This document shows, in pieces, positions 7,116-26,141 of a DNA stretch of 64,000 bases. The translations under genes were made by a program, and so were the position numbers. The notes under the pieces are model-generated. The model saw only the letters and a list, made by a program, of their open reading frames with translations. It searched no databases and had not been told where the DNA came from. The number at the start of each line of letters is the position of its first letter. Positions within the stretch are counted from its first letter, which is position 1. Source of the DNA: Gammaproteobacteria bacterium (lineage in GTDB: Bacteria > Pseudomonadota > Gammaproteobacteria > GCA-2400775); contig JAADIY010000028.1 in the NCBI GenBank assembly GCA_013151045.1, forward strand, positions 8,335 through 72,334, in the 5' to 3' direction.

Positions 7116-7128
7116 TCACTTCAATATC

Positions 7129-7647
7129 ATGACCTTAGAGTGTGGTTGTCCAGAACATTACCCAAATGAATGGGATGGGCAAGACATCGATCTTAGTGGG
7201 CACTGTGTTCACTCTCACTCTATACCCACGTTCTTACATATGCCGATTAACTATGCCGGTCATATGATGCGTCAGGCAGCTTCAGTTAATGCCTTAGAAC
7301 TAAAAGAACGCTGGCCAGGTTTTACCCTAACGAGGACGGGCATGCTTGGTGGAGAAATTTTACGTCTTATCGAAGACACAGATTCGCCTTCAAGACTAGT
7401 CAAATATCTACCTATCAACTTCGACGTTCGCTGTGTCATTCATCAAGGCACCATGAAGACATTACGTGACAGTGCACGTGTGGTACAACAAGCTTTATTT
7501 GATGAAGGCAAATTACCCAAAGAAATGTACCTGTGCCATCTTACTTGCCCACGCTGTGCAGAGGAAAGAGGGGGTGACAAAATCTTATTATTACGTCGTT
7601 GGCAAGCCAGTACAACTTTGCAGACGCGTCTAAATAATCGAAAATAA
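7129..7647 (+). CDS. Cys/His-rich hypothetical protein, possible metal binding
   Basis: About 172 aa from an internal ATG (the longer ORF overlaps the previous gene); CGCPEH, HCVHSH and CHLTCPRC motifs. Confidence 0.4.
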   Translation: MTLECGCPEHYPNEWDGQDIDLSGHCVHSHSIPTFLHMPINYAGHMMRQAASVNALELKERWPGFTLTRTGMLGGEILRLIEDTDSPSRLVKYLPINFDVRCVIHQGTMKTLRDSARVVQQALFDEGKLPKEMYLCHLTCPRCAEERGGDKILLLRRWQASTTLQTRLNNRK

Positions 7648-10101: not shown

Positions 10102-12737
10102 AACTGTTGCACTCGCTCATTAAGCAATAAATTGGTAATAGGTCGCGCCTGATAAAGTGGACTAACACTTTTTAACTTGGCAATATATTTTTTAATAGCC
10201 TCATCATCATTATTTTTCTGAGCGATACCTAACAGAGCTTCTAAGGTTAATAGGTGATCAGGCTTAATCAATAAAATTTTCTCTAAGCTAGCTTGTTTAA
10301 CTTTTGGCGTAATACCCACACGAGACAAAGATGCCAACATCTTGTCTGCAAGAGTTCCGCTAATCCATTGATCCTTCGGGTTGCCTCTGTAAGCAAATTG
10401 TAGGAAACGCTGCGCTCGGGCCTCATCACCACTTAGTTGAGCCAACCAACTACGCATCGATGCATCGGCAGCAATATAGGCTCGCTCAAAAAGCTCTGCT
10501 TCATTCTTATTCACCTGCAAATGTTGAGCTGCGAGTTCTGCGCTAGGCCTTTGTTTGATTAACCACTCTAGCACTTCTTGAAAATTTATTTCCCCAGCGT
10601 AGCGTACGCGAGGGAGGTGATATTCTATCTGTGGCCGCCATTCATCTTCAATTAATTTGGCGGGGCTTTTAATACGACCAATATAACGACCTAACCAAGT
10701 CCATACACCCTCACCTCCTGTTTGTTTCGCATTAGATTCTAGCACTTTGATATTTTTCAATAGTCGACCAGCATCAACGGTAACACCAGGGCTACCCACC
10801 ATCGCCAACCTAAAACCATCAACAAATAATGCGGCACCAGGGAAGCTATGCTCAAACGTGTTCAATACAATTTGCAAAGCAGTTAAATCAAATTGATTAA
10901 GAGCCAACCATTGCACATAAAGACCATCTTGATTTAAGCGTGATTTAACACGATCAAATTGTTGTTGCGATAACAAACGACTACGACCAACTAAATCGGG
11001 ATGGAATAGATCCCCGACAATGACATCGTAATATTCATTAGAACGCATTAAATAACGGCGCGCGTCATCATTAATAATAGTAATCTTATTACTAATATCT
11101 CTATTGCTTTGAGCAAACCATTTATCAGCAGACTCTATTGCGCCTTTTGATATTTCAACAGCAGTAATATCCACATCAAAGTCTAAGGCTGCTGATGCTG
11201 AAATTCCAGTGCCCAAACCAAGAAACAATACTTTTTCTGCATCGGGGTTTAATAACAAGGGTAAGCGTGCTTGGTTCTTCTGAGCGACAACTGCCGTGGG
11301 CTCAGTTGAAGCGTCCATACGTTGCAGGTCTGATAACAGTAAACGCTGCCCCCGCTGCGTTTCGACAACATGGGTAGTCGCTATTGCATCTTCGTGTAGC
11401 GACAATACAGATTGGCTATTGGCATGAGCGACAGGAAGCAGCTCTGTAACCGTTGGCAGGTCCGGCAAGAAAAAAAGAGTGCTTGCGAGTATGGGTGATA
11501 CTAGCCAAAATAACCTCGCTTTACACCAGCGCATACCGGCAACAAATAAGATGATTGCTGCTATTAATATAGTTAGCGGGGTACCGACTGTAGGCATTAA
11601 TACAAATCCTGCCAACAAAGCACCAAAGCCAGCACCAATGGCATTAACACCGTAGAACCAAGCGCCTGCACTACTGGGGTCTTCATAACCTCGAACGAGT
11701 AAAGGCAACCATGCGCCTAAGCAAAAGGTCACGACAACCGTCACCATAGCTAAAGCAACACCCTGCTTTATTAGCGCGTTGATTAAAGAGCTGTACTCAA
11801 TTGTTTCGGCCCATGCCGATACGGATGCCAAGCTAATCAAAGAAATTATCGCTGCTAACGCTGCCGTGACAGGCAACAGATTCAACCAGAGTCGTCTCGC
11901 CCCCCATTGTGATAAAACACTGCCACATGCTGTGCCGGCCAGGAATATCGCTATTATTATAGCTAGTACATATTCGGTACGAAGTAAGGCCATACCGTAG
12001 AGTCTAGCCCATGCGACTTGTAGCATCAGTGCGGCTGCACCGATCAAGGCATAGCTTAGTAAATCTAAGACAGCCGGTTTTACTGAAAAGTTCCTACTAA
12101 CACTCTGCTTTAGGGGTGATTTTATGGCGATCAAAAAAAATAAAAGGCCTGTTATCGCACCTAATAGTGCAATGGTATATAAACTATTCGCCCAACCTAA
12201 TACTGGCAACAACAATACCGGCACTAACGCACCAAATGCTGCGCCCAAGGTATTGGCCGCATAGAGATGGGAAACCGTAAGCTGTGTGTCTTTTATCGCG
12301 GCAAGAACAAGTGGAAAGCCTAAGCCCATCGCCGTCGCTGGCAATAACATAAAAAATAGTGCCGCAACGAGCTCAATGCTATGCCATGCTGACAACTGGA
12401 TATCACTAGTCGCCGTGATTAAAAATTCTGACCAATATTGATTTATCGAAGGTAGCCCTACAGCATAAAGCGCTACCAATATTTCAATTAAGGCTAGGAC
12501 CATCAAAGGTCTCGCTAGGTGTAATAAATACCGTTTACCAAGAATACTACCTAGGCCTAGACCAAACATGAAAGCGCTAACTGTAATGACGACGCCAAAG
12601 TTACTGACGCCAAACTGTAGACTTAACATGCGCATCCATAGCACTTCGTAGGCTAGTGCTACGAGGCCAGAAATACCGTAGAGGATGAGCAATAGAAAGA
12701 TGAGAGGTGTTTTATCTGACCTTATCATGGTCATCAA
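10098..12737 (-). CDS. fused MFS-type membrane domain / spermidine-synthase-like (SAM-dependent aminopropyltransferase fold) / TPR protein
   Basis: 879 aa; about 12 TM N-terminal; central domain with GLGTGISA and VIVGDLFHPD spermidine-synthase motifs; C-terminal TPR-like repeats. Confidence 0.7.
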   Translation of the reverse strand: MMTMIRSDKTPLIFLLLILYGISGLVALAYEVLWMRMLSLQFGVSNFGVVITVSAFMFGLGLGSILGKRYLLHLARPLMVLALIEILVALYAVGLPSINQYWSEFLITATSDIQLSAWHSIELVAALFFMLLPATAMGLGFPLVLAAIKDTQLTVSHLYAANTLGAAFGALVPVLLLPVLGWANSLYTIALLGAITGLLFFLIAIKSPLKQSVSRNFSVKPAVLDLLSYALIGAAALMLQVAWARLYGMALLRTEYVLAIIIAIFLAGTACGSVLSQWGARRLWLNLLPVTAALAAIISLISLASVSAWAETIEYSSLINALIKQGVALAMVTVVVTFCLGAWLPLLVRGYEDPSSAGAWFYGVNAIGAGFGALLAGFVLMPTVGTPLTILIAAIILFVAGMRWCKARLFWLVSPILASTLFFLPDLPTVTELLPVAHANSQSVLSLHEDAIATTHVVETQRGQRLLLSDLQRMDASTEPTAVVAQKNQARLPLLLNPDAEKVLFLGLGTGISASAALDFDVDITAVEISKGAIESADKWFAQSNRDISNKITIINDDARRYLMRSNEYYDVIVGDLFHPDLVGRSRLLSQQQFDRVKSRLNQDGLYVQWLALNQFDLTALQIVLNTFEHSFPGAALFVDGFRLAMVGSPGVTVDAGRLLKNIKVLESNAKQTGGEGVWTWLGRYIGRIKSPAKLIEDEWRPQIEYHLPRVRYAGEINFQEVLEWLIKQRPSAELAAQHLQVNKNEAELFERAYIAADASMRSWLAQLSGDEARAQRFLQFAYRGNPKDQWISGTLADKMLASLSRVGITPKVKQASLEKILLIKPDHLLTLEALLGIAQKNNDDEAIKKYIAKLKSVSPLYQARPITNLLLNERVQQL

Positions 12738-13353: not shown

Positions 13354-14424
13354 CTAACCTTTTTCATCGGCAATATTTTTACTACAACGAAACCCGTAAA
13401 AATCAGACGCATAATGTGGAAAGGAATAATTTCGGTGATAAGCGGACGTTGCAAACGGATCGCTTTTAAATGATCCACCGCGCATCACAACATAAGTTGC
13501 TTCAACTTCAACTAAGTCGACCACTTTCAAAGATTTATCTAATGTTGTTGTCGCTCTACCTACTTTCGGTATAAACAACTCAGCCTGCGCATCAGCACCT
13601 TGATATGCTACAAACTCATCTGCTGTCCATTCACTAACATTACCTGCCATATCATGAACACCATATGGGCTTTTACCCGTCGGATAACGAGTGACATCGG
13701 TTGCCGAACCAACACTATAGTAGGTATTAAGATTGTCAGCGTCCATCAAATTACCCCATGGCCAACGACGACCATCTTCACCCCGTGCAGCTTTTTCCCA
13801 TTCCGCCTCTCGCGGTAAGCGTGCATCGACCCACTGACAATATCCTGCTGCGTCATACCAGGAAACCATGGTAACCGGTGCCAATAAATCCCCCGGCCTC
13901 ATTCGCCCACCACTCCAGTGTAATGGCGGTCTATGTTTAGTATCCGCAACGAAACGCGCATATTCTGCATTAGTTACCGGATACTTTCTAATCTCATAGG
14001 CGTCAGTGCTAGCTCTATGTGCTGGCTTGTCTTGATCATTCGCTAGATGGCGATCAGTGCCCATTATAAACTCGCCTGCTGGAATTTCTATCCAAGCACC
14101 GAGCTCTGACCACATATCGGGGGTTAATAACTCTTCCGCCTGCTCAATACTATAAGTAGTTTGAACAGTTTTTAATGCCTCGTTATGTTGATGCCGAATA
14201 ATATCCTCACCCGCAGCTCGAATTCGAGACTCCATTTCAGAGATATCGTAAGTTGCACTCGCACGCATTTGATCGATACGACTGCCACCTAGCTGGACAA
14301 GATGATAAAACGCGAAAACAATTGCAGCGGCAGCACACGTCACCAGTGTTGCTGCTAAAAAAACCTTTCGCTTCGCGCGCTCCATGCCATCAATTTGAGG
14401 AGTTTGTGTAAACTTTTTGGCCAT
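13354..14424 (-). CDS. FGE-sulfatase family protein (formylglycine-generating-enzyme / SUMF1 / NirV-like), membrane anchored
   Basis: 356 aa; N-terminal TM; FGE motifs (YEIRKYPVTNAEYARF, GYCQWVDARLPREAEWEKAARG, RGGSF, HRNYSFP). Confidence 0.7.
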   Translation of the reverse strand: MAKKFTQTPQIDGMERAKRKVFLAATLVTCAAAAIVFAFYHLVQLGGSRIDQMRASATYDISEMESRIRAAGEDIIRHQHNEALKTVQTTYSIEQAEELLTPDMWSELGAWIEIPAGEFIMGTDRHLANDQDKPAHRASTDAYEIRKYPVTNAEYARFVADTKHRPPLHWSGGRMRPGDLLAPVTMVSWYDAAGYCQWVDARLPREAEWEKAARGEDGRRWPWGNLMDADNLNTYYSVGSATDVTRYPTGKSPYGVHDMAGNVSEWTADEFVAYQGADAQAELFIPKVGRATTTLDKSLKVVDLVEVEATYVVMRGGSFKSDPFATSAYHRNYSFPHYASDFYGFRCSKNIADEKG

Positions 14425-14429
14425 ACAAT

Positions 14430-14903
14430 CTAGCGGCCCAATTTAGACGGTGCTTTTTCGTCCTTGTGACCAGTGTGACGTGGCATACGACCGTAAGTTT
14501 TTTTCACCCACAATTCACCTAGTATTCCACCGACAGCTGATGCTTCAATTGCGACAATAATGATGAAACCCATATAACCTATCGGCAGCAAACGCATATC
14601 TTCTGGCATCACACTTACCCCAGTAGAGGTGCTAAAATATTGAAACAGATAAACCATTAGCGCAGGAAAATAACAAAGAACCTTGCCACCGAGACCATAA
14701 ATTAACGATACGGTAACACCGCCAATAAATGGCGTTAACACCAAACCGATAAATAAACTTGGGTGAAAATAAGAAGTTAAATCTTGAAACAACTCAAGAC
14801 GCACGCCAAACAGCAGATTGAGTGTATACATTACAACTGCACCAGATAAGATCGCAAATAAGGCCCACTTTAGCGCCTCTAGCTTATTGCTGATCTTTAT
14901 CAT
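14430..14903 (-). CDS. polytopic membrane protein, hypothetical
   Basis: 157 aa, 4 TM. Confidence 0.45.
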   Translation of the reverse strand: MIKISNKLEALKWALFAILSGAVVMYTLNLLFGVRLELFQDLTSYFHPSLFIGLVLTPFIGGVTVSLIYGLGGKVLCYFPALMVYLFQYFSTSTGVSVMPEDMRLLPIGYMGFIIIVAIEASAVGGILGELWVKKTYGRMPRHTGHKDEKAPSKLGR

Positions 14904-15393
14904 CTGATTCAGGCCACTTATTACCGGTTAATTTTTTATATTCCAGTTTCTTAAGGTCTTCTAAATACCAATCTTCCACTTTTAGGCTAGCCATATACGC
15001 AGCTAGGGTCCTTCTATCTTCTTCAGGGAGATGCGCGTAAGACGGCATACTCCATTCCGCTTTCAAACGCCCTTTCAATATCTGCTGAGGGTCTTCAGAA
15101 GAAAAATAATCAAATAACCAATCTTCTGACCGTAATGATCCAATTCCATCTAATATTGGAGCCGGAACCGTAGCCATAATATTTTTAATTGTCCAAAGCG
15201 AATGACACTTCTTACAATTTTGTTCTTTGTAAATGACATCACTCGCTATAGTCAGCTCTTTTGTAGCAGTACTATAAAATGGAATCGACTTCTCTTGATC
15301 TGGTGTCTGAGAAAAACCTATATAATTACGCACCATTAGGCCAACTATGAGAAGCCCCATACCACCTAATATCAACTTTTCCCCGGTACGCAT
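14884..15393 (-). CDS. mono-heme c-type cytochrome, membrane anchored
   Basis: 169 aa; N-terminal TM; CKKCH motif. Confidence 0.6.
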   Translation of the reverse strand: MRTGEKLILGGMGLLIVGLMVRNYIGFSQTPDQEKSIPFYSTATKELTIASDVIYKEQNCKKCHSLWTIKNIMATVPAPILDGIGSLRSEDWLFDYFSSEDPQQILKGRLKAEWSMPSYAHLPEEDRRTLAAYMASLKVEDWYLEDLKKLEYKKLTGNKWPESDDKDQQ

Positions 15394-15405
15394 GCAGCTC
15401 TACCC

Positions 15406-15690
15406 TTATGCGCTTTCTTGAGCTTGGCGCGCTTTAGCTTTTTCAGCTAACAACTCTGCACGGCGCGATTCTTGCGCAGCATTAACTTCTTGAAACTTGG
15501 CAAACTCTTCTGGGCTCATTTTATCTTTGTCATTTTCGTCAAAGACCAAGTATTTTATATCTTCATCAAACTGCTCATTCTTATACGCCCAGCGTATACC
15601 GATTATCGCTGCGATAATAATTCCGCCTGCTGCGACCATCCACAAATATATTGTCCAACCATCAGGTAGGGATTGCATAAATTCAGTCAT
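15406..15690 (-). CDS. small single-TM protein with charged C-terminal tail (CcoQ/FixQ-like by architecture only)
   Basis: 94 aa. Confidence 0.35.
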   Translation of the reverse strand: MTEFMQSLPDGWTIYLWMVAAGGIIIAAIIGIRWAYKNEQFDEDIKYLVFDENDKDKMSPEEFAKFQEVNAAQESRRAELLAEKAKARQAQESA

Positions 15691-15699
15691 CGTACTCTC

Positions 15700-16002
15700 C
15701 TAAATAAGCTGTCCAAACAGTAATTGTGCTGCACCATAAATTACCGCACAAATCAGCCCAAAAATCAGCCAAGCAAATAATACCACTTCGCCCTTACGCA
15801 TGCCTTTTTCGCCCTTACGCTTGCCATCTTTATAAGCGTCGCGTGCAAATTTATAAACCACCACTGTAAATAAAATAATAATACCGGCCATCATAAAGAA
15901 AAAGATGCCGATGCTATATTCCTGTGATTTAAGTCCCTCGATGGTGAACTGATCCAGCTCTTCATCTGAGAGAATTATGGCGTTGTTATCGGTATTATTC
16001 AT
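15700..16002 (-). CDS. small 2-TM membrane protein
   Basis: 100 aa. Confidence 0.4.
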   Translation of the reverse strand: MNNTDNNAIILSDEELDQFTIEGLKSQEYSIGIFFFMMAGIIILFTVVVYKFARDAYKDGKRKGEKGMRKGEVVLFAWLIFGLICAVIYGAAQLLFGQLI

Positions 16003-16060
16003 TCTGGTCTACGAACACTAACACAGATATAGACCATGCTAGGTAGGGAAAGGTTTAACA

Positions 16061-16104
16061 TTTTTGAGAAAAAATGCCGCTCAAGAGAGCGGCATTTTAT
16101 TTCC
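16061..16104. terminator. bidirectional rho-independent terminator splitting the cluster into two operons
   Basis: 12-bp perfect stem aaaatgccgctc / gagcggcatttt with loop aaga; A-run on one side and T-run on the other. Confidence 0.55.
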
Positions 16105-16130
16105 ATAAATACGCCGTATGGCGATTTACT

Positions 16131-16247
16131 TCATTGCTTATCTGACTTATCGAAATTATCAATCATAAAGCTGTAAATGTAAGGTGCTACAAATACAACC
16201 AAAATAGGTATAAGCAGTATTAATGGTGGATTATCTAATTCAATCAT
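16131..16247 (-). CDS. small single-TM membrane peptide (38 aa), below ORF-track cutoff
   Basis: MIELDNPPLILLIPILVVFVAPYIYSFMIDNFDKSDKQ; AGGTGA-like RBS; similar to the 6382-6504 peptide; followed by the terminator. Confidence 0.45.
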   Translation of the reverse strand: MIELDNPPLILLIPILVVFVAPYIYSFMIDNFDKSDKQ

Positions 16248-16272
16248 TTTATTTCACCTATATTGGATCAGC

Positions 16273-16917
16273 TTAGTGGCCAATTGAATGGTCTGGTTCC
16301 CAATCTGAAGGGGGCAAACGCTTCACTGTAATCATAACAGCAATACAAAAGTAAATAACGTAGAAAATATCGATGGTATAGCCAATATCCCACGAAGGTT
16401 GAACCCGAATTTTCACACCATCATCACGGTATTCGCCTTCAAAGTTAGCTAACGCTACATCTTTACCAACAATCGTGTAGTAGTCCATATCAGCATTTTC
16501 GCGCTGTAATTCAACAATTTGATCTTTGACAAGACGCAAATCATTCATTGTTAAAGGATGACGATCCTGATGGCCTGCCCAATCAGAGCCTTGAGACTTA
16601 ACTGTGTCAACAATATAAGCCATCTTATCTTCATCGTTATCAAGTGCTGCAACTTCTGGAGTATCCATCAGAGCAATATACTCTTCATAGATAATAGCCA
16701 TAGGGCGTTGACCCCACAAAGGTGCTGTTACCAAAAACGCTGTAATAATTGTCAGCATCAACAACCACACCACTGCCTGTGGCAAGCGATTATTGTCTTC
16801 CATAATGCCACCCAGACTCTCGTGCTCCCAAACATGTCTTGCATGCTCGTTCTGATCGCTGGTTGCTAACGTATATAGTGGTTTATCGTATTTCCAAGCC
16901 ATTTGGCTATCCTCCAA
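16273..16917 (-). CDS. 2-TM membrane protein with acidic periplasmic/cytoplasmic domain, hypothetical (occupies the CcoP position but has no heme motif)
   Basis: 214 aa. Confidence 0.45.
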   Translation of the reverse strand: MEDSQMAWKYDKPLYTLATSDQNEHARHVWEHESLGGIMEDNNRLPQAVVWLLMLTIITAFLVTAPLWGQRPMAIIYEEYIALMDTPEVAALDNDEDKMAYIVDTVKSQGSDWAGHQDRHPLTMNDLRLVKDQIVELQRENADMDYYTIVGKDVALANFEGEYRDDGVKIRVQPSWDIGYTIDIFYVIYFCIAVMITVKRLPPSDWEPDHSIGH

Positions 16918-16928
16918 GGAAAACTAAA

Positions 16929-17877
16929 TTACTTCAAACTCAAGACATAATCCATCAAGTAACGGATTTCGCTGTTAGGCGCATAATCAGGTACCAATGG
17001 TGGATAAAGACTCTTGCCTGCAGCGTACTCTTTATAATCAGCACGCCATTGATCAAAGTCAATCTCGTTACCGTTAGCATCAACTTCGCCCCATAAATAA
17101 TCGAAGCGAGGCATAATTGAATGCGGCTGAACTAATCTTGGATTGAAAAAATGCATCATCATCCATTCTTTCGATGAGTTACGCGAACCAACATGCAATA
17201 AATCAGGAGCCTTACGATCAGAACCAAACGCGGTTGGAGCCTCACCATTAAAATCACCTAGACGCGGCGGCAAACCAAAATATTGCCAATCCTGAGTTTG
17301 CTCAGGAAGCAGCGTATGACACCTCGCAGCCTTCACGTACGAACATCGTTTTACCGCTACCAACGTGACGCTTATCAGTATCCGCGGCTGAGGCTAATAC
17401 TGCCGCAGCAGTCCAATCACGAGTCGCGCTAGCATTTTCAATATAGGGGAAGGTTTCACCTTCGTAATCACCACGCGACACCAAGAATACTGCGCCTTCA
17501 TCTGAAGTCGCAACACCAACTTGACCATCATCAGCACTTAATGCTGCGACCTCAGTACCAAGGATACCCGGATTACGAACCGCACTAGGAAACGGGGTTC
17601 CCGGCACATAGACATAAGCGTCAACCGGATCAATATCAGCACCTGTGACAGGATCTTTCTTGATAGTAACAGTTAAAGGCTTACCTTTCCCTTGTAGGAA
17701 CGGATCCTCGTAGGAAAAACCTGAGTTATGGCCATAAGACAAACCTTTAACCAAACCTGTTTCAGTCACGCCAACACTATAAATAGTTAAGCTAGGCATA
17801 TATAAGGTGATCATCATTGAACCACCTAATGCGATACCAAACATGCGGGTACCAATTTTATACTCTCTAAAAGCCAT
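16929..17877 (-). CDS. CcoO/FixO-like (NorC-like) mono-heme subunit with long N-terminal insertion; frame break inside the heme-binding motif
   Basis: Upstream frame ends ...TMFVREGC EVSYAAS*; the downstream frame continues ARCHTLLPEQ ... APDLLHVGSRNSSKEWMMMHFFNPRLVQPHSIMPRFDYLW, colinear with the CcoO stretches REGCYNCHSQMIRPF and [38 protein letters not shown]. Only 4 nt lie between the two Cys codons. Confidence 0.55.
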
Positions 17878-17938
17878 TCTTCTTTACTCCGCTAAAGGTT
17901 AACGCTATTCGTTTTTTGTTATGAACTACGAATAACGA

Positions 17939-19345
17939 TTAACGTTCGTATGCGATCTCATGTGGCAAACGACCTACTGGCACTGGCGTACCTGCACGTG
18001 CTGTCATCCACATGTTATAGAGCCAAACAACGTTACCAGTAAATACCATCGTACCGCCGACCCAACGAGCAATCATATAAGGATGCTCTGCAATAACCAC
18101 GTCGATATAAGGCACTTCGTAGATCTTCGCCGCACCCTGAATCAAACCAGCAATAGTGATTGAGATCCAGTAGGTTGCAAAACCAATCAATAAGAACCAG
18201 AAGTGGAAATTAGCTAGCGCCAATGAGTACAGCTTACGACGCAAGATCGTTTGTAGGCCGTAGTACACAGCAGCAGCTTCTAGGAAAGTAGAGAAACCTA
18301 GCAAGGCCAAATGAGCATGAGCCACAATCCAACCAGTACCATGTACATACCAGTTAATGGCACGCGTTTGCTGGAAACCACCCTGCATATTTAGCGGGAT
18401 AGCTAACATAACACCCGTAATGGTAAAACGAATTTCGATGTTATCAACAAAGTAATGCCATTTACCGGTCATGGTAAGGAGCAGGTTAGATACAAACGCA
18501 ATCGCTGGCACCAAAATCAACACACCCTCAACAGAGGCGAAAGATTTTAGCCACTCAGGCAATGGTGATGACATCAAATGATGCGCTGCTGGTGTTGAGT
18601 AAAATACAACCACTGACCAGAAATGCAAGTGACCAATACGATGAGAGTACAGTGGATTACCGGTAATCTTCGGCACCGTATAATAGGCAATCGCCGCTGC
18701 CACCGGGGTAATCCACAAGCCAAGAATGTTATGGGCGTGCCACCAGGTCAAATAGGCTTCTGTCAAACCGGTCAGAGAAAAGTACTCCGGCAGGTTACCG
18801 ACCAGCACCACAATCATCAACATGAATATGGCCGAACCAAAAAACCAGTTGGTGGTGTAAATACCCTGCGTCTTACGATGAACGATGGTCATCCAGACAT
18901 TGATCCCCAATGGCAACAGCACTGCGAACAGGATAATCAGATCAATAGGCCATGGAAAGTCAGTGTACTCACGTCCGGAAGTAATACCGGCCCACATCAG
19001 GCACAAGGCAACAGAGAGACCAGCGTTCCAGTTAAAACAGGTCCAGATACCAAGCTTTTCAGACCAAAGTTTGGTATTACCCAAAGCAGGCGTGATGTAC
19101 ATAAAGGCCATGGCAAAGGCCATTGAGATCCAGCCGAAGATAACGGCCATGACGTGAACTTGGCGCATATGACCAAAGGCAAACATATAGCTACCGGTTA
19201 CAAAATCCGGGAAAGCGAGTTTTGCAGCATTAAAAGAACCCAAGGCAGTCCCAATAATAAACCAGATGATGGACGAAAACCCAAAAAAGACAGCCGCTGA
19301 ACCTGCGGGTATATCTTCGTTCTTCGCAAAAAGATACTTGAACAT
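17939..19345 (-). CDS. cbb3-type (C-family) heme-copper oxidase subunit I, CcoN-like, divergent
   Basis: 468 aa, 12 TM; conserved His ligand pattern (FGHMRQVH; WWHAHNILG; PAAHHLM; VAHAHLALLG) matches CcoN, not the NorB HLWVEG pattern. Confidence 0.8.
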   Translation of the reverse strand: MFKYLFAKNEDIPAGSAAVFFGFSSIIWFIIGTALGSFNAAKLAFPDFVTGSYMFAFGHMRQVHVMAVIFGWISMAFAMAFMYITPALGNTKLWSEKLGIWTCFNWNAGLSVALCLMWAGITSGREYTDFPWPIDLIILFAVLLPLGINVWMTIVHRKTQGIYTTNWFFGSAIFMLMIVVLVGNLPEYFSLTGLTEAYLTWWHAHNILGLWITPVAAAIAYYTVPKITGNPLYSHRIGHLHFWSVVVFYSTPAAHHLMSSPLPEWLKSFASVEGVLILVPAIAFVSNLLLTMTGKWHYFVDNIEIRFTITGVMLAIPLNMQGGFQQTRAINWYVHGTGWIVAHAHLALLGFSTFLEAAAVYYGLQTILRRKLYSLALANFHFWFLLIGFATYWISITIAGLIQGAAKIYEVPYIDVVIAEHPYMIARWVGGTMVFTGNVVWLYNMWMTARAGTPVPVGRLPHEIAYER

Positions 19346-19444
19346 GGGAACTGTGCTCCGTTTAAGACGTAAAACTTAATATTAAAATTATAAAATGCTT
19401 TTTTTGAATACGACCACATTACGCAGTCATAACTCGAACCTTTT

Positions 19445-19537
19445 TTAGTGCTTACCCGGCATCATCAGATACCAAGCGAACCACATACTTGAGAAGGCCA
19501 AAACAATACAAAATACAGTTGCGACAATAGTTATCAT
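19445..19537 (-). CDS. tiny membrane peptide (30 aa), possible
   Basis: MITIVATVFCIVLAFSSMWFAWYLMMPGKH with a GAGGGGAG RBS, immediately upstream of the CcoN-like gene. Confidence 0.3.
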   Translation of the reverse strand: MITIVATVFCIVLAFSSMWFAWYLMMPGKH

Positions 19538-19557
19538 CGTTATCTCCCCTCTTTCAT

Positions 19558-19845
19558 TTAGGCTGCTGCGCGAGCTTGAGCTTCTAACGCACCGTGGCGT
19601 GAAGCAGAAACCATCATGATAGCCATGAATGCAACACCAAACACGAGCATACACCACGTCATGAAACCCATAAAGGTAGTGGGGTCATAGACTTGACCAC
19701 CCCAACCGCCCCAATCGTCAAAACGACCGCGGCCCAGCGCACACATCAATGCAGCGCCAAATACGCTACCGTTGCCCATTCCTGTAGTAACACCAGCAAC
19801 CAAGCTCACCCAAAAAGTCTTTGAATATGGCAACAAATTGTCCAT
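19558..19845 (-). CDS. small 2-TM membrane protein
   Basis: 95 aa. Confidence 0.4.
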   Translation of the reverse strand: MDNLLPYSKTFWVSLVAGVTTGMGNGSVFGAALMCALGRGRFDDWGGWGGQVYDPTTFMGFMTWCMLVFGVAFMAIMMVSASRHGALEAQARAAA

Positions 19846-20077
19846 ACAAGCTCCTCATTATGCGCACCTTAAGCAGCAGGGCCGCGTAGCGCGATCTAAT
19901 ATTAAATTACAAGCAGCGGACACTGAAACAGCCCGCCTCGCAAAAAAGTCGGGGAATATTCACATAATGGCCGTTTTGAGTCAAGCCCTGAAAACACTTG
20001 AACAGCAAATGAATAAAGTGTTTTGTTACAAAAAAATCGTTTAAAATACAGCTAATTCAATTAATTAGTGACCGACA

Positions 20078-20299
20078 ATGTCTTATCAAACCTGGATATC
20101 ACGAAAAGAAATTTTTATCTACCTTATCGCTATTTTCACCGGCTTATTCATCTGCGGATATTCGATTCACATGCTGATAGGTGGGCTAGTAAGCGGAACG
20201 ACAGAGCGCATCATCATCGGCGCTGTATGCAGCCTAATGTTTATCGTTATTGGACTTATGGCCTATGACGTTAAGAAACAGCGCCAAGAACAGGCCTGA
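20078..20299 (+). CDS. small 2-TM membrane protein, possible
   Basis: 73 aa; the only plus-strand ORF inside the minus-strand cluster. Confidence 0.3.
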   Translation: MSYQTWISRKEIFIYLIAIFTGLFICGYSIHMLIGGLVSGTTERIIIGAVCSLMFIVIGLMAYDVKKQRQEQA

Positions 20300-20315
20300 G
20301 ATACCCTAGAAACGA

Positions 20316-20768
20316 TTATTTATAAATACGCAGGCTCGCCATTGCATCGTCATAAACCGTGGCAGACTCAAACTGACCGCGGTGAAACACATACTGACGT
20401 TTTTTACCTGACATATCCAAACCAGTAAGCCCAAACGACTTTCCGGCGTAGTCAGAAAAAAAGCGCACCTCTTTAACCAGAGACACGTGATCGTTGCTAC
20501 GCAGCCTGAGCGTGACATGCTGCTTACTCACACTTAGCGCAACGGGCGCACTAGGCAGCAGCATCAAGCGTCCAGACAATATTCGATTAGCACCGATAAA
20601 ACCCATAAAACAGGCAAGAAACATTAGCAAATAAGCTAAGGGTTGATTGCCTTGGTACCATAACACTAAGGCATAGGCACCAAGCAGTATCACTACTGGC
20701 AGATAAAGCAGTGCATCCCAAGCCGCGCCACGACGATCGGGCGCCAAACTATAATCTTGTTTCGCCAC
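20316..20768 (-). CDS. membrane protein, hypothetical
   Basis: 150 aa, 2 N-terminal TM plus soluble domain. Confidence 0.45.
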   Translation of the reverse strand: MAKQDYSLAPDRRGAAWDALLYLPVVILLGAYALVLWYQGNQPLAYLLMFLACFMGFIGANRILSGRLMLLPSAPVALSVSKQHVTLRLRSNDHVSLVKEVRFFSDYAGKSFGLTGLDMSGKKRQYVFHRGQFESATVYDDAMASLRIYK

Positions 20769-20771
20769 TAC

Positions 20772-21290
20772 TTAACCTGCTTCAGGGTTTAGCTTCGCAG
20801 CCAGTGTCTCAGATATGATGGCATCCATTTCACCGTACAACATACGGCCTGGTCGCTTAAACTTCACCTGCTTATCCGCGCCAATAACGAATGTCCAAGG
20901 ATCACCTTGAACGCCAAAGGCGGTGAACGCTTCTGGGTTTTGATACTGATCCATATGCAAAAACAACACATCGTCTTCATATTTATTCAATATCGCTTTA
21001 AGCATCTGTAATTGTTTATCACATACTGTGCAATGCCCTGGGGTAGCAAACTCTAGCAATATTGTTTTATTCTGCGCCAAGGCCTCATCAATCGACAATT
21101 GATACATACGCGCATCTGGCTGGCGGTACGTCGTGATACGACTAAAATCACCACTAACATCTGCTAATGTCTTGGTCTTCAATGACGGCGCATACTCACC
21201 TACACGTAACTGGCCTTCAGGCGTAATGTCACACGCACTCAGCATCATTGTTAACGCTGCAGCCGTCAGCAAACTCGCATATGATTTCAT
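20772..21290 (-). CDS. thioredoxin-fold lipoprotein (TlpA/ResA/Sco-like thiol-disulfide oxidoreductase)
   Basis: 172 aa; lipobox MLSAC; FATPGHCTVCD CxxC motif. Confidence 0.55.
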   Translation of the reverse strand: MKSYASLLTAAALTMMLSACDITPEGQLRVGEYAPSLKTKTLADVSGDFSRITTYRQPDARMYQLSIDEALAQNKTILLEFATPGHCTVCDKQLQMLKAILNKYEDDVLFLHMDQYQNPEAFTAFGVQGDPWTFVIGADKQVKFKRPGRMLYGEMDAIISETLAAKLNPEAG

Positions 21291-21320
21291 TTCACTAACC
21301 TCAAGTTAAGCATTCAGCAA

Positions 21321-21860
21321 TTAAGCGCTGCTAGGAACATCTTTTTCCCAACCAACACAGCTGCGAAAAACGTTATAACCCCAGATACAATTTGCCAATA
21401 GCACCATAGAACCAAAAATTCCCATAGCCGCGAGCCAGGGCTTAATAACCGCTTCCACCTCACTAGGAGGCAAACTCACGCTAGCAGTTCCACCCAATAT
21501 GCCGGCAATGGTAAATAAACTCACCATACCGATCAAACCAATATTGTGTATCCAGAAATGCACTTTAACCAGCTTCAAACTATAAATCGGTCGTTTCACC
21601 AAACGCGGCACAAAATAATAGACCGCAGCAAAAATCGCCATTTCCACCCAACCCAATAAATTAACATGGGTATGAGCACGCACTATCAACTGACCATGAG
21701 CACGGTGATCGACAAAGTGGCGTAGCTCGGCGATGCCGCCCATCAAAGCACCCCAAGAAAAGCCAATGATGCTATAAATGATACAAGCGTAGAGAAACAA
21801 TAAGGTATAGCGTGTGTACTCTACGTCGTCCTCCCAAGGAGCATTGTTCGAAACACTCAT
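21321..21860 (-). CDS. membrane protein resembling the C-terminal helices of heme-copper oxidase subunit I (paralog of 6600-7115)
   Basis: 179 aa; RAHTHVNLLGWVEMAIFAAVYYFVPR motif; start ATG overlaps the stop of the upstream cytochrome c (ATGA). Confidence 0.5.
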   Translation of the reverse strand: MSVSNNAPWEDDVEYTRYTLLFLYACIIYSIIGFSWGALMGGIAELRHFVDHRAHGQLIVRAHTHVNLLGWVEMAIFAAVYYFVPRLVKRPIYSLKLVKVHFWIHNIGLIGMVSLFTIAGILGGTASVSLPPSEVEAVIKPWLAAMGIFGSMVLLANCIWGYNVFRSCVGWEKDVPSSA

Positions 21861-22497
21861 TGCTCAGCATCCGGACCTTGGCCAACACCACCTGTAGGCG
21901 CAGAGGTATCACCACTAAAATCTTTGGTACGGATATCTTGATACTTATCCTTCCAGCTTTCGGGCGCCCAAATGCTCAACATACTGTCGATGAAAACCGA
22001 TTCCCCTTTAGGCGGAATAGGTGAAGTCGAAGCACCCTGCTGAGAACGCAGCTCTGATAAGAACGTTGCAACGGCATAGAGCTTATCTTCGCCAAGCTCA
22101 GCAACATAAGCCGCTTCTTTACCTAAACCATGATCAATCGTCGCCGCATGATAAGTTTCTTTATAAATTGGCTCGGGATCGCTTAAAAAGCTCCCCAGCC
22201 ATTCATGACTACGGCGCGAACCAATCCAATACCATCAAGCGTTGTTTGACCGCCCATACTCGTGCCCGACAAAAAAGCACGATGACAAGAACTACATCCA
22301 TTACCCTTAAAAATTCGATGGCCTAAGTTACCATTTTCAGATAGGTCAAAACTCGTTAGATTCGAAAAAATCTGTTTCTTAGTAGTCAATCGATAACCTT
22401 CAAGCGCCACATAGCCTACTAATGCAACCACTATAAAAATCCCGGCGATGCCAAATAATACTTTTTCGCCACGCTTTAGACTAGATTTTGCCGCCAT
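21857..22497 (-). CDS. membrane-anchored mono-heme c-type cytochrome, two apparent homopolymer frameshifts
   Basis: N-terminal TM plus CSSCH in the 22183-22497 ORF; the sequence continues in two other frames (DPEPIYKETYHAATIDHGLGKEAAYVAELG ... then ESVFIDSMLSIWAPESWKDKYQDIRTKDF ... DAEQ*); shifts sit at the A5/C4 runs at 22185-22197 and the C5 run at 22003-22007. Confidence 0.5.
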
Positions 22498-22601
22498 GAC
22501 AACCTCAACAAATAAAACAGATAAAAGAAAAGGGTGGACAAGCCACCCTTTACCAAGTTCAAGCTTGCACCAAACTAATGGCGCAACATCAACATGCCAG
22601 C

Positions 22602-23366
22602 TTAGTGCTTATAGGGCACATGACGCGCAGGTAAGCGCGAGTTACCCAAGCTATATGGAGAAGCTTCTTTGGTTGATAAATAAGCAGCAACATTATTAAT
22701 GTCTTCATCAGACATATTTTTAGCCACATTACGCATGACTGCTTGTGGATCGTTCGCACGCGAACCATCACGCCATTTCTTCATCTGCGCAACAAGGTAA
22801 GTATATTTTTGCTGGCCAATCATTGGGAACATTGGCTCCACACCACGACCGTTATAGTCATGGCAAGAACGGCATGCTGCAACGCTTTTTTCGCCGATAC
22901 CGTGATTAACAATCGACTTACCAAGATATGTTTCACCCACCTCAACACCATTCGCTCTCAAAGTGTTCAAATCAGAAACAGACTTATCAACAGTTTCACG
23001 ATCATGCTGCCATTCAGCAATATAAGCAGAGACATCCAAACGCTCTTGAGCTGTTAAGCCCTTAGCATTTGAGTTCATGATGTACATAGTCGTGTCTTCA
23101 CGCTTGTCATCTGCATAGTCTTGCAGCTGCTTAGCGATAAACTGGAAAATTTGGCCCGCTAAACGAGGAGTACCTAAATCGTCGCTACCCATACCATCAG
23201 GCATATGGCAACCGGAACATGCTGGAACGCCAGTGTCTTCCTTGCCGTTGTTATAAATATTTTCACCATTTGCCAAATCAACGGTAAGACCGCCAGCGGA
23301 CGCAGAACTTACTGCAAACGCAAAAGCAAAAAGCGAACCCACTGCAAACTTAGTTGAGTAACGCAT
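22602..23366 (-). CDS. di-heme cytochrome c4-like protein
   Basis: Signal peptide MRYSTKFAVGSLFAFAFAVSSASA with a GGAGGG RBS; two CxxCH motifs (CSGCH, CRSCH). Confidence 0.7.
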   Translation of the reverse strand: MRYSTKFAVGSLFAFAFAVSSASAGGLTVDLANGENIYNNGKEDTGVPACSGCHMPDGMGSDDLGTPRLAGQIFQFIAKQLQDYADDKREDTTMYIMNSNAKGLTAQERLDVSAYIAEWQHDRETVDKSVSDLNTLRANGVEVGETYLGKSIVNHGIGEKSVAACRSCHDYNGRGVEPMFPMIGQQKYTYLVAQMKKWRDGSRANDPQAVMRNVAKNMSDEDINNVAAYLSTKEASPYSLGNSRLPARHVPYKH

Positions 23367-23888
23367 TACAACACCCTCCAAAAAAACTGTGTCGAGGCCG
23401 TGACCGACCTTTTATTAACTTCATGACTACCGCATTCAACGAACATTTCGCTGCAGCAATCTATAATTCAAATTTGGGAAGCTTCAAGCCTACCAAATAA
23501 CGGTTCGCTTAAGAGCTTTTCTTCAGCAAAAACCAAGCAAATCCCCAAGCTAGTGGGAACCAAATCGCGTAAAGTATGACTACGTCTGCAGTCTCTAGCA
23601 TGGCTAACCTCTGATTATCTTAATGATTCATAAAATGAATAAAACGGGCGACTGTATACCATGAAAACAGCACTCAGCGCAAGCTCAGTTATGCCATTAT
23701 AGCGTCAATATTGGCACTGTTTTTAACCCAAACCACCCTTCTAATAGATTGATTTTTAACGAAAATTAAGCTGTCAATGAAAAACAAAAACAGCACAGCA
23801 AAAAATTTTAGCCCAACTGCATTAGATGACCACAGACAGAGTTTCCGGTATGCTCCGCAGCCATCTCCAACGGCGGCAATTCTAAGCC

Positions 23889-25280
23889 ATGATTAATGAC
23901 AAAATCAAACAGCGCGGACTCATTCTAATCACCCTACTGGTTTGGGGTGGGCTCATTCTGTGGTTCAAATTGGTGCAATTTAGCCCTTACGGTATTGAAG
24001 AAGGGGCCTCGCGTGCGCTGTTACTCATGTGGTCATTGGCTGAACGCGTTAACACAACTGCGGTTTTATTAACGCATGACTTTCGCACACTAATTTTTGT
24101 TCCGCTAGCACTGTATTGGAGTGGCAGCCTAGTCGCAGCCAAAGTGTTCACTCTACTCGCATTTTTTGCCGGCACGCTGTTTTTTTACCGCTGGGCAGTG
24201 AAACACCTTGACGGCGAAGTCGCTTTAATTGCAAGTGGACTACTGCTGATAGCGCCATTAAGTTTGCAACAAATTGATGCCATGGGCGCAGGCGTCTACT
24301 TGCTGCTTACATTCGGCCTAGGCAGCTGGCTCGACCAACGTATTCGCGACCAAGAAAAGTTGCTATCAGCTTGGTACTTCATCCATATGGTCGTTATTGC
24401 AGCGATCATCAGCATGCACCCTATCGGCTTAGGCTATGCTTTAGGCATATTGTGGAGCTGGCAACGCAAGCCTATCAACAACAAATTACAGAAGCAGATA
24501 TTGATCGGTGTTGGCGTTAGCGCAATCATCATCGGCTTACTGCAAGCGGGCTGGATACACATCGAATGGTTTAATAACCCCATCACAACACTAGGTAGCG
24601 CAATATTCAAAATTGACGATGCCAATAGTGGTGCAGCTTGGTTTGCTGGCGCGCTGGTACTTACTCTGTTCGCCATTGCCGCCATTCGCTCACGTCAATT
24701 TATAGTCGGTAACAGCCTAGCAAGCAGCCTCCTACTCGCCAGCCTGATTGGTCTGCTGTGTGCTGACAAAGTCTGGGCGCTACTACTGCTCACATTGCTG
24801 CTATACCTTGGCACACAGCAGCTTATCCACGCGCAAAAATTTGGCATGCGCGGATTCATGGCGCAACGAGGCCTAGCATTAATGCTGCTCTTTATTATTG
24901 CTTTTGTCTTCATGCAAGGTGATAAAGCGCACTACAACACCTTGGCGCGCGGTGATTTTGGTGAAAATGATCGTCTTATTGCAACGCTGGTCGCCTCGAT
25001 CAAAGACGATAAACAAAAACTCCAAATTAGCAGTCAATGGCCTGGGCGCACTATGCTAGCGATCAAACAAGCTACTTTACCGCTACCACCGGTTAGTGAC
25101 GACGATGCGTATTTTATCGAGATTACCAAAGGCTTTACCCACATTATTTTTGATCATACCGACCCTAAAAACACCGCCTTAGCACGACAAATTGCTCGCT
25201 TAAGCGGCAACATGTCGACCTTAACGCGGGAACCTGGTGGGGTGATTATCGAAGTCCAAGCAAAGGATAAGACGCCCTAG
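23889..25280 (+). CDS. polytopic inner-membrane protein, hypothetical (GT-C/ArnT-like topology, unconfirmed)
   Basis: 463 aa, about 11 TM. Confidence 0.45.
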   Translation: MINDKIKQRGLILITLLVWGGLILWFKLVQFSPYGIEEGASRALLLMWSLAERVNTTAVLLTHDFRTLIFVPLALYWSGSLVAAKVFTLLAFFAGTLFFYRWAVKHLDGEVALIASGLLLIAPLSLQQIDAMGAGVYLLLTFGLGSWLDQRIRDQEKLLSAWYFIHMVVIAAIISMHPIGLGYALGILWSWQRKPINNKLQKQILIGVGVSAIIIGLLQAGWIHIEWFNNPITTLGSAIFKIDDANSGAAWFAGALVLTLFAIAAIRSRQFIVGNSLASSLLLASLIGLLCADKVWALLLLTLLLYLGTQQLIHAQKFGMRGFMAQRGLALMLLFIIAFVFMQGDKAHYNTLARGDFGENDRLIATLVASIKDDKQKLQISSQWPGRTMLAIKQATLPLPPVSDDDAYFIEITKGFTHIIFDHTDPKNTALARQIARLSGNMSTLTREPGGVIIEVQAKDKTP

Positions 25281-25320: not shown

Positions 25321-26141
25321 CTAGCGCTGACACTGACCACAATAAACCGTCGCACGCTGACCTAAACGTACCAACTTGAGTGTTGCACCGCAAGACTGAC
25401 AAGGCTGTCCGTCACGACCGTAGACTTTGTGCTCAAAAGCAAAATAACCTGGCTTACCATCGCTGTTAACAAAATCACGTAATGTCGAGCCACCACTCTC
25501 GATTGCCGCCTGTAACACACGTTTTATTTCAACCGCCAAAACGTCATAACGCTTTAATGAAATGCGCCCTGCTGCACGCAGAGGATGAATGCCTGCCATA
25601 AATAACGCTTCATTGGCATAAATATTACCAACCCCTGCCACAACACCCCTATCCATAATTACATTCTTCACCTCACAGCCGTATTGCGACCGCGCGAACG
25701 ATGGTGCAAATGATACCCATCAAACTCGTCTGATAAAGGTTCTGGACCGATTTTTTTAAGCAAAGCATGCTCAGGTTCATCACTGCGTAACCACAACACA
25801 CTGCCAAAACGCCGCGGATCGTGCAGCCTTAAACAACCACCGTTTTTTAATAACACATCAACATGATCATGTTTATTCGGCGATTTCGTTTCATTCAGAT
25901 AACGTAAACTCCCTGACATGCCAAGATGAATCATCATCGACCCGACGGTACTTTGCAGGAGCAAATATTTTCCTCGACGCACAACCTCGTCAATAGTTTG
26001 CCCAGCAAACTCAAGCTCCAAACTTTTAGGCACACCATAGCGAAGCTTATAATTACGCACAACAACCTCAGCCACACGCTGACCTTGAATATGTGGCGCA
26101 ATACCACGTCGTGTCGTCTCAACTTCAGGCAACTCTGGCAT
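25321..26141 (-). CDS. mutM: formamidopyrimidine-DNA glycosylase, apparent single-base frameshift
   Basis: N-terminal [12 protein letters not shown] in ORF 25668-26141; C-terminal zinc finger (CQSCG ... CGQCQ) and H2TH domain in ORF 25321-25671; the junction near 25668-25676 is repaired by one extra G. Confidence 0.75.

Follow-up and report, generated by a model that had tools for sequence, protein, structure and literature searches.

A strongly constrained stand-alone copy of CcoN helices IX-XII is encoded beside an anchored cytochrome c in a divergent cbb3-type oxidase cluster

A single region of the 'Candidatus Tenderia electrophaga' genome carries both the Cyc1-type cytochrome and those oxidase genes that are transcribed most strongly (PMC5371394). 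Eddie et al. (2017) grouped two genes of that region, Tel_00410 (a cytochrome c) and Tel_00415 (a small protein), as 'Complex IV (1)'; their transcripts were reported at logCPM 9.3 and 8.7, those of Cyc1 (Tel_00405) at 12.4 and those of the full CcoN (Tel_00440) at 13.7 (PMC5371394 supplement). A preprint on the Tenderiales drew 26 conserved genes in exactly the order found here, labelled genes 4 and 26 'truncated CcoN' (Fig. 2B), and proposed the region as 'a sort of alternative complex IV' (10.1101/2022.05.06.490989). Sideroxydans lithotrophicus ES-1 likewise has a Cyc1 homologue linked to a cbb3 gene cluster, and expresses its 'distal' cbb3 at a high level (PMC8788666); according to Ducluzeau et al., as cited in that paper, the 'distal' enzymes differ in subunit composition. 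The small gene is not described in He et al. (2017) or in Emerson et al. (2013). The Ca. Tenderia and Sideroxydans findings place the region at the final steps of iron oxidation by neutrophiles and of autotrophy driven by a cathode.

We analysed a window of 64,000 nucleotides (contig JAADIY010000028.1, positions 8,335 to 72,334, assembly GCA_013151045.1) from a gammaproteobacterial metagenome-assembled genome (MAG), in which an ATG-to-stop ORF on the minus strand (21321-21860) encodes a 179-aa inner-membrane protein containing ...RAHTHVNLLGW...YYFVPR... (Table 1). An exact-sequence look-up returned NOX27513.1, 'MAG: cbb3-type cytochrome c oxidase subunit I [Gammaproteobacteria bacterium]', from a 95,225-bp contig. 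The protein has the length of the 'truncated CcoN' products (about 170-180 aa) and is 70-91% identical to a set of proteins of 168-185 aa that includes those of Ca. Tenderia MAGs and Mariprofundus ferrooxydans PV-1; its gene likewise has an anchored monohaem cytochrome c on one side and a thioredoxin-like gene on the other, and precedes the genes for a 468-aa CcoN and a CcoO. From synteny, gene sizes and the loci of Ca. Tenderia sp. MAGs, we infer that it is the orthologue of Tel_00415/ALP51724.1. The feature is therefore not new, having already been drawn as 'truncated CcoN' with no function assigned (10.1101/2022.05.06.490989). An opposite-strand ORF at 21812-22024 (70 aa, GTG start) overlaps the start of the gene and is without support.

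Table 1. Features of the window discussed in the text (positions are those of the window; position 1 is its first nucleotide).
Feature	Position	Strand	Evidence
171-aa paralogue (NOX27494.1), separate family, invariant GPGHMIDPLAHAH, position of ALP51744.1	6600..7115	+	BLASTP, hhalign, conservation
CcoO (FixO)-like monohaem subunit; frame broken inside CWWCH by loss of 2 bp at ~17325	16929..17877	-	ORFs, alignment
Full-length 12-helix CcoN-type subunit I, 468 aa	17939..19345	-	COX1 3-436/436, E 2e-73
150-aa membrane protein, fourth module gene	20316..20768	-	80/84 loci
Thioredoxin-fold lipoprotein (CTVC), directly downstream of the 179-aa gene	20772..21290	-	Pfam Thioredoxin E 9e-7; 83/84 loci
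CDS, four-helix 'truncated CcoN', 179 aa	21321..21860	-	ORF, COX1 match, AF2, exact look-up, dN/dS
Codons H63-T64-H65	21666..21674	-	Alignment to 3mk7_A residues 341-408; conservation table
ATGA start/stop overlap, cytochrome c frame / 179-aa gene	21857..21860	-	Sequence (caATGAgt)
Membrane-anchored monohaem class I cytochrome c (CSSCH), frameshifted; 211 aa when repaired	21857..22497	-	ORFs, alignment, repair
5-bp tandem duplication (ATTGG, ATTGG) breaking the cytochrome c frame	22221..22230	-	Alignment with L005, L006, L008
Terminator-like hairpin between dihaem and monohaem cytochrome c	22529..22551	-	Consensus scan only
Dihaem cytochrome c, upstream, position of Cyc1 (Tel_00405)	22602..23381	-	Pfam Cytochrom_C, two stretches; gene order

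A first-pass annotation made from the letters of the window had taken the product for a stand-alone paralogue of the C-terminal part of subunit I, which is borne out by BLASTP, COX1 and hhalign matches. In BLASTP, residues 39-168 aligned significantly with residues 320-449 of the 468-aa subunit I encoded in the same cluster (33% identity over 131 aa, E 3e-18), and Pfam COX1 (PF00115) scored 67.8 bits (gathering cut-off 34.8, E 1e-18) through profile positions 310-434 of 436 only. The AlphaFold2 (AF2) model (pLDDT 81, pTM 0.74) consists of four long helices, at residues 13-42, 58-87, 95-129 and 132-169, and Foldseek ranked cbb3-oxidase CcoN chains first among PDB structures (query-normalised TM 0.72-0.74). 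Based on the sequence, Pfam and AF2/Foldseek matches, we conclude that the protein is a free-standing copy of helices IX-XII, the last of the three four-helix repeats of a C-family CcoN. With 179 aa and four transmembrane (TM) helices in the model, it falls short of the twelve-helix core of a haem-copper oxidase subunit I, and a complete twelve-helix CcoN is encoded in the same cluster. The ccoN equivalog model of NCBIfam (TIGR00780) gave 59.2 bits, far below its cut-off of 583, hence the public name 'cbb3-type cytochrome c oxidase subunit I' is a misleading over-annotation. A weak match was also found to Pfam DUF2871 (PF11070), a family of small multi-helix membrane proteins (E 8e-5, positions 5-95 of 134; 23.3 bits, below the gathering cut-off of 27.4). 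PF11070 is also among the precomputed matches of a few orthologues, and the retrieved papers in which DUF2871 is mentioned assign it no function.

The gene is real and strongly constrained, and is no remnant. Its dN/dS (Nei-Gojobori) was 0.034 and 0.077 against two relatives with unsaturated dS, and the median over 333 unsaturated pairs was 0.11, which indicates purifying selection; in most pairs the synonymous sites were saturated, yet protein identity remained at 70% or above. A protein database contained 711 clusters related to the protein, of which the best 120 were all 168-185 aa long and 71-91% identical to it, while clustering at 50% reduced the entire orthologous family to one full-length representative. 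In a scan with one genome per species, 393 genomes carried a relative. The carriers include Gammaproteobacteria (MAGs labelled Thiotrichales, to which the nearest relatives belong, Ca. Tenderia, Chromatiaceae and Ectothiorhodospiraceae) and Zetaproteobacteria such as the cultured iron oxidiser M. ferrooxydans PV-1. Across hundreds of genomes of the two classes the orthologues are 168-185 aa long, 70-91% identical and flanked by the same neighbours. The first-pass view that the fragment is functional rather than a pseudogene remnant is upheld by these dN/dS values, by the hundreds of orthologues of the same length and by the kept neighbours. Measured as median identity to relatives less than 80% identical, conservation within the cluster was 83.5% for CcoN, 75% for the CcoO haem domain and for the 179-aa protein, 63% for the thioredoxin-like protein, 52% for the dihaem cytochrome c and 47-54% for the monohaem cytochrome c partner. 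The 179-aa protein is thus the third most conserved product of its cluster. Conservation at the level of the CcoO haem domain, and above that of the thioredoxin and the cytochrome c, looks like that of a cofactor-bearing core subunit rather than a chaperone.

The most conserved residues include a pair of histidines. In the alignment to CcoN of Pseudomonas stutzeri (3mk7_A), H63 and H65 match H345 and H347, which we take from the published structure to be the ligands of haem b3 and haem b, respectively. Both are invariant in 85 orthologues, as are 59 of the 179 positions in all, among them R47, R53, N67, W71, E73, Y81, R86, H101, H105, N106, E136, N157 and N163. TM2 is almost fully invariant in this set, and the variation in TM3 is confined to one side of the helix, the pattern that a single stripe facing the lipid would give. 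Among 16 diverse stand-alone relatives (29-48% identity), H65 is the sole invariant histidine. Of the six canonical metal-ligand histidines of subunit I (one each in helices II and VI, two each in VII and X), only the helix-X pair is kept; the segments that bear the other four are absent, and there is no CuB ligand. Lacking the CuB histidines and the helix-II histidine, the protein cannot act as an oxidase by itself and cannot reduce O2 alone. The TM2-TM3 loop is rich in lysine and arginine; if it is cytoplasmic, as this composition and the model suggest, the histidine pair would lie close to where TM2 meets the periplasm, on the membrane face that also bears the haem domain of the anchored cytochrome c.

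That cytochrome c is encoded directly upstream. As the first-pass annotation stated, the ATG of the 179-aa gene overlaps a TGA (ATGA). The coupling to a membrane-anchored cytochrome c that it also described is intact in relatives but not in the window, where the cytochrome c is frameshifted. As sequenced, the ORF with the anchor and CSSCH stops at 22183 after 104 aa, and the frame that enters the ATGA holds only a 41-aa ORF, with its ATG at 21982 and no earlier start. The 5-bp duplication is not present in three close relatives, and removal of one ATTGG gives a 211-aa cytochrome c identical to P0524 at 202 of 211 positions (96%). A JGI gene call on this very contig is the one record of the 104-aa fragment, whereas the cytochromes of close relatives are intact and 211 aa long. 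Two further uncompensated frameshifts occur in the contig, one in the CcoO-like gene near 17325 (relatives have a single FixO ORF of 291-318 aa) and one in fpg, which is split by a 5-bp near-duplication near 25668-25677. The three may be either assembly errors or real lesions, and the small gene is intact in the same contig.

In related loci the cytochrome c and the small gene were adjacent in 83 of 84 cases. The 4-nt overlap was found in 31 of 83 loci, and most of the others had spacings within about -20 to +40 nt, figures that follow heuristic start-codon calls. Each orthologue of the monohaem cytochrome has one CxxCH. When the profile of the partner was searched against the PDB, generic class I cytochromes ranked first (c555 and the cytochrome c domain in ActA of alternative complex III, ACIII), with NorC at E 0.011 and CcoO at E 0.21, so a truncated CcoO or NorC is unsupported as an identity for the partner. 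No conserved histidine was found in its anchor.

The cytochrome and the 179-aa gene belong to a four-gene module of fixed order, namely anchored monohaem cytochrome c, 179-aa gene, thioredoxin-like lipoprotein and 150-aa protein, the last of which has no Pfam or NCBIfam match. Shortly downstream of the module, in Gamma- and Zetaproteobacteria, comes a divergent cbb3-type CcoN/CcoO oxidase cluster of a kind typical of iron oxidisers and electroautotrophs. The gene order was kept in every sufficiently long locus (L001-L003 and the long ones among 84 fetched): the dihaem cytochrome c is followed by the four-gene module, small membrane ORFs, CcoN (468 aa), a long CcoO, a FixP N-terminal-like protein, a second anchored cytochrome c, an FGE-sulfatase-like protein and a fused membrane/spermidine-synthase-like protein. 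In the window, a FixG-like (CcoG-like) ferredoxin and more small cytochromes come next. The 468-aa CcoN is 75-97% identical across relatives; P0390 is a CcoN 100% identical to that of the window. The hairpin upstream of the module would fit the lower RNA level downstream of the Cyc1 gene, and an Rfam scan of 14000-24000 gave no RNA family. A betaproteobacterial MAG has an ACIII operon immediately before its CcoN orthologue, at the site that the module occupies in the Gamma- and Zetaproteobacteria, with a dihaem and a 193-aa cytochrome c beyond it that are transcribed divergently. The module is therefore separable from CcoN, and physical coupling of the two is not obligatory.

Another small protein of the window, the 171-aa product of 6600-7115, is a paralogue of the 179-aa protein, as had been proposed from the letters. 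BLASTP aligned residues 62-124 of the latter with it at 35% identity over 63 aa (E 7e-10), and hhalign aligned the two families with a probability of 97.8% (E 8e-13, 145 columns, 26% identity). Like the 179-aa family, the 171-aa family has four helices, an HxH at the start of TM2 and a match to COX1 profile positions 309-430. It comprises 586 clusters, 52-95% identical to the window copy, in which the loop GPGHMIDPLAHAH is invariant, and is less conserved than the 179-aa family (52-60% identity over a comparable span). Its fixed partner is no cytochrome c but a gene for a cytoplasmic PF20603 'Bact_hydrolase' (7051-7647 in the window); the two genes overlap by 4 nt in two other contigs, and at least one genome, represented by a 241-kb metagenome contig, has the pair surrounded by housekeeping genes and distant from any oxidase cluster. 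The 171-aa gene thus belongs to a separate unit, whose place next to the cluster in this MAG and in Ca. Tenderia is incidental. The proposal of two diverged copies inside one cluster holds in part only, the 171-aa copy forming its own two-gene unit with PF20603. An obligate heterodimer of the 179-aa and 171-aa proteins is weakened by this partnership and by the occurrence away from the oxidase cluster. A 157-aa membrane protein (14430-14903), which follows the second anchored cytochrome c, was also considered as a third copy and rejected, having no similarity and no Pfam match.

The relationship to subunit I extends beyond its C-terminus. With hhalign, the profile of the 179-aa family detected all three thirds of the neighbouring CcoN, residues 1-150 with a probability of 92% (E 6e-7), residues 151-310 with 87% (E 4e-6) and residues 311-468 with 98.5% (E 2.5e-15), and phmmer found several matched stretches, usually three, in full-length oxidases. 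H63 or H65 aligned with the helix-II histidine, the helix-VI histidine and the helix-X pair, with a register shift of 0-2 residues between alignments. Judged by alignment, the helix-II histidine corresponds to the other haem b ligand of CcoN, and by motif the helix-VI histidine corresponds to the CuB ligand; in P. stutzeri these are H60 and H207. The 179-aa protein is therefore one repeat, standing free, of the unit that subunit I contains three times. There are many further stand-alone families, with lengths of 145-190 aa. One distant stand-alone relative, P0333, is fused to two DUF1858 domains and weakly matches the C-terminus of NnrS. Literature on a pseudo-threefold or triplicated subunit I yielded nothing useful.

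Taking the histidine pair, the conservation and the gene pairing together, we tentatively propose (probability about 0.4) that the 179-aa protein binds haem b and, with no catalysis of its own, serves the anchored cytochrome c as a partner in electron relay. The histidine pair at the periplasmic end of the nearly invariant TM2 would hold a b-type haem at an interface; as one four-helix unit provides only one axial ligand per haem, the second would have to come from a partner, which could be another 179-aa copy or the helix by which the cytochrome c is anchored. The protein would form a roughly 1:1 complex with the cytochrome encoded upstream, resembling a CcoO/CcoN or NorC/NorB pair minus the catalytic centre, and this cytochrome b/c module could relay electrons along the periplasmic face, in the direction of the neighbouring cbb3-like oxidase or in parallel with it. 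Transcription of both genes in Ca. Tenderia, their grouping as 'Complex IV (1)' and the suggested 'alternative complex IV' speak for this reading. Against it stand the anchor with no conserved histidine, the generic class I character of the cytochrome, the betaproteobacterial locus and, in this contig, a frameshifted cytochrome c beside an intact small gene.

An assembly or cofactor-insertion scaffold is the first alternative, and in our judgement a rather unlikely one. Here the protein would mimic the C-terminus of CcoN and, together with the thioredoxin-like lipoprotein, transiently hold haem b/b3 or dock CcoO-type anchors. A TlpA/ResA-type thioredoxin-fold lipoprotein always adjoins the gene, the cluster holds other maturation-type genes (the FixG/CcoG-like ferredoxin and the FGE-sulfatase-like protein), and in Ca. 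Tenderia the full-length CcoN has a transcript level about 30-fold higher, which is what a sub-stoichiometric factor would lead one to expect (PMC5371394 supplement). However, the protein evolves as slowly as subunits of the catalytic complex and more slowly than the thioredoxin, and a scaffold leaves the pairing with a dedicated anchored cytochrome c unexplained. To our knowledge, moreover, no haem-copper oxidase assembly factor has such a fold.

A wider reading of the repeat relationship, which we consider unlikely as a whole, would place the 179-aa protein in a broad, undescribed superfamily of free-standing single oxidase repeats. It would work as an oligomer in which a bis-His haem b is gripped by the TM2 helices of two copies, much as helices II and X grip one in the full enzyme, would be a living model of the ancestor that, before triplication, gave rise to all respiratory oxidases and NO reductases, and with the cytochrome c would make a new minimal b/c membrane complex in iron and electrode oxidation.

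It is distinctly unlikely that the protein carries no cofactor and has a structural role, as an extra membrane subunit of the cbb3-like oxidase or of a supercomplex of oxidase and ACIII, with histidines that serve packing or proton handling. Conserved polar residues (E73, N67, H101, H105, N106, N157 and N163) do line its helices, the module travels with the oxidase cluster and, in a betaproteobacterium, with ACIII, and the difference in subunit composition of 'distal' cbb3 reported in the citation of Ducluzeau et al. (in PMC8788666) would agree with an additional subunit. Nevertheless, the invariance of H63 and H65 in the 85 orthologues, and of H65 in very distant relatives as well, is hard to explain without a metal or haem.

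Highly improbable is a gas- or redox-sensing haem protein, in which a five-coordinate haem on H63, as with haem b3, would bind O2 or NO to signal or protect. P0333 speaks for it through its weak match to the NnrS C-terminus and its DUF1858 domains, of a type found in NO-stress 'repair of iron centres' proteins, but its domain matches the 179-aa protein over the N-terminal part only (query residues 18-133 in the search with representatives), the 179-aa family is without an output domain, and the fixed partner is an electron carrier and no signalling protein. Finally, a fragment or pseudogene remnant of a duplicated ccoN, suggested by coverage of only the last third of the COX1 profile and by the other broken genes in the contig, is ruled out by dN/dS of 0.03-0.11 with saturated synonymous sites, by the uniform 168-185 aa in hundreds of genomes with conserved start, stop, neighbours and synteny, and by transcription of the Ca. 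Tenderia orthologue (PMC5371394 supplement).

The protein is among the three most conserved products of its region, yet it is named as subunit I, which it cannot be. If haem binding and the pairing with the cytochrome c are true, it would be a new component of the 'alternative complex IV' and would offer an experimental handle on how a twelve-helix core arose from a four-helix unit; should it turn out to be no more than an assembly factor or accessory subunit, the finding would be an ordinary one.

Compared with CcoN of P. stutzeri (PDB 3MK7 chain A), the 179-aa protein shares the fold and a match to residues 341-408 that includes H345-x-H347, but it has four of the twelve helices, no counterpart of H60, of H207/H257/H258 or of the cross-linked tyrosine, and is encoded by a separate gene with a full 468-aa CcoN nearby. 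In the CcoO/CcoN and NorC/NorB pairs, the gene of an N-terminally anchored monohaem cytochrome c likewise stands directly before, and often overlaps, that of a membrane partner of the haem-copper fold; unlike in those pairs, the 179-aa partner is without a catalytic binuclear centre and its cytochrome c is only marginally NorC/CcoO-like. The Ca. Tenderia region differs in that the host here is another gammaproteobacterial MAG with a frameshifted cytochrome c partner. It has the same order of dihaem cytochrome c, monohaem cytochrome c, truncated CcoN and thioredoxin, then CcoN and CcoO and finally a second truncated CcoN, with genes that match in size and MAG orthologues 76-78% identical to the 179-aa protein.

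We compared the profile of the 179-aa protein (21321-21860), a stand-alone copy of CcoN helices IX-XII, with the thirds of the 468-aa full-length CcoN (17939-19345), and hhalign gave 92%, 87% and 98.5%. That the profile of such a small protein matches every third of CcoN is a trace, at the level of sequence, of the 3 x 4-helix internal repeat in oxidase subunit I. A representative search also returned P0333 (311 aa), a distant stand-alone relative in which the oxidase-repeat domain is joined to two DUF1858 domains, and which weakly matches the C-terminus of NnrS. DUF1858 domains occur in proteins for the repair of iron centres under NO stress.

The gene of the 171-aa paralogue is overlapped and followed by a PF20603 'Bact_hydrolase' gene in each of three loci, namely the window and contigs L086 and L087. 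In the metagenome contig L087 the pair lies amid housekeeping genes, apart from oxidase clusters. The oxidase cluster itself has further conserved members (Table), among them a 73-aa membrane ORF whose position and orientation are kept in 72 of the 84 related loci. In a betaproteobacterial MAG (L085, 1960-9347), a whole alternative complex III operon lies directly upstream of the orthologous CcoN/CcoO genes. Beyond the operon come two divergently transcribed cytochrome c genes, one for a dihaem protein and one for a protein of 193 aa.

Table. Coordinates of features in the window and, where named, in other contigs
Feature	Position	Strand	Remark
171-aa paralogue/PF20603 pair, window	6600-7647	+	
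Same pair, L086	2591-3627		
Same pair, L087	10001-11055		
879-aa fused membrane/spermidine-synthase-like protein	10098-12737	minus	conserved oxidase-cluster member
FGE-sulfatase-like protein	13354-14424	minus	conserved oxidase-cluster member
Second anchored cytochrome c (monohaem, 169 aa) and 157-aa multi-helix membrane protein	14430-15393	minus	
2-bp deletion, CcoO-like gene (16929-17877)	~17325	minus	relative to close relatives L005 and L006
73-aa membrane ORF	20078-20299	+	opposite strand, within cluster
5-bp tandem duplication ATTGG-ATTGG	22221-22230		frameshifts the anchored monohaem cytochrome c
Terminator-like hairpin	22529-22551	minus	9-bp stem, then T-run; consensus match
Apparent 5-bp near-duplication GTGAG-GTGAA, fpg/mutM (25321-26141)	~25668-25677	minus	

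Removal of one ATTGG from the monohaem cytochrome c gene restored a protein of 211 aa with 96% identity to relatives. The 2-bp deletion falls exactly within the CWWCH haem-binding motif of the CcoO-like gene and breaks the gene into two ORFs, one of 191 aa and the other of 144 aa. FixO in relatives is a single ORF of 291-318 aa. Furthermore, fpg is split into two ORFs (157 and 116 aa), apparently by the near-duplication. With fpg, the uncompensated frameshifts in the window number three, so that the MAG either contains assembly errors or is undergoing gene decay.

The terminator-like hairpin separates the gene for the Cyc1-like dihaem cytochrome c from that for the monohaem one. In Ca. Tenderia, the transcript level of the downstream genes is roughly 8-fold lower (PMC5371394 supplement), a drop that the predicted hairpin would fit. 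The genes of the second anchored cytochrome c and the 157-aa membrane protein overlap by 20 nt. No match to the 157-aa protein was returned by the family search, and no similarity was found between it and the 179-aa protein; the layout of this pair is the same as that of the cytochrome c/179-aa protein pair.
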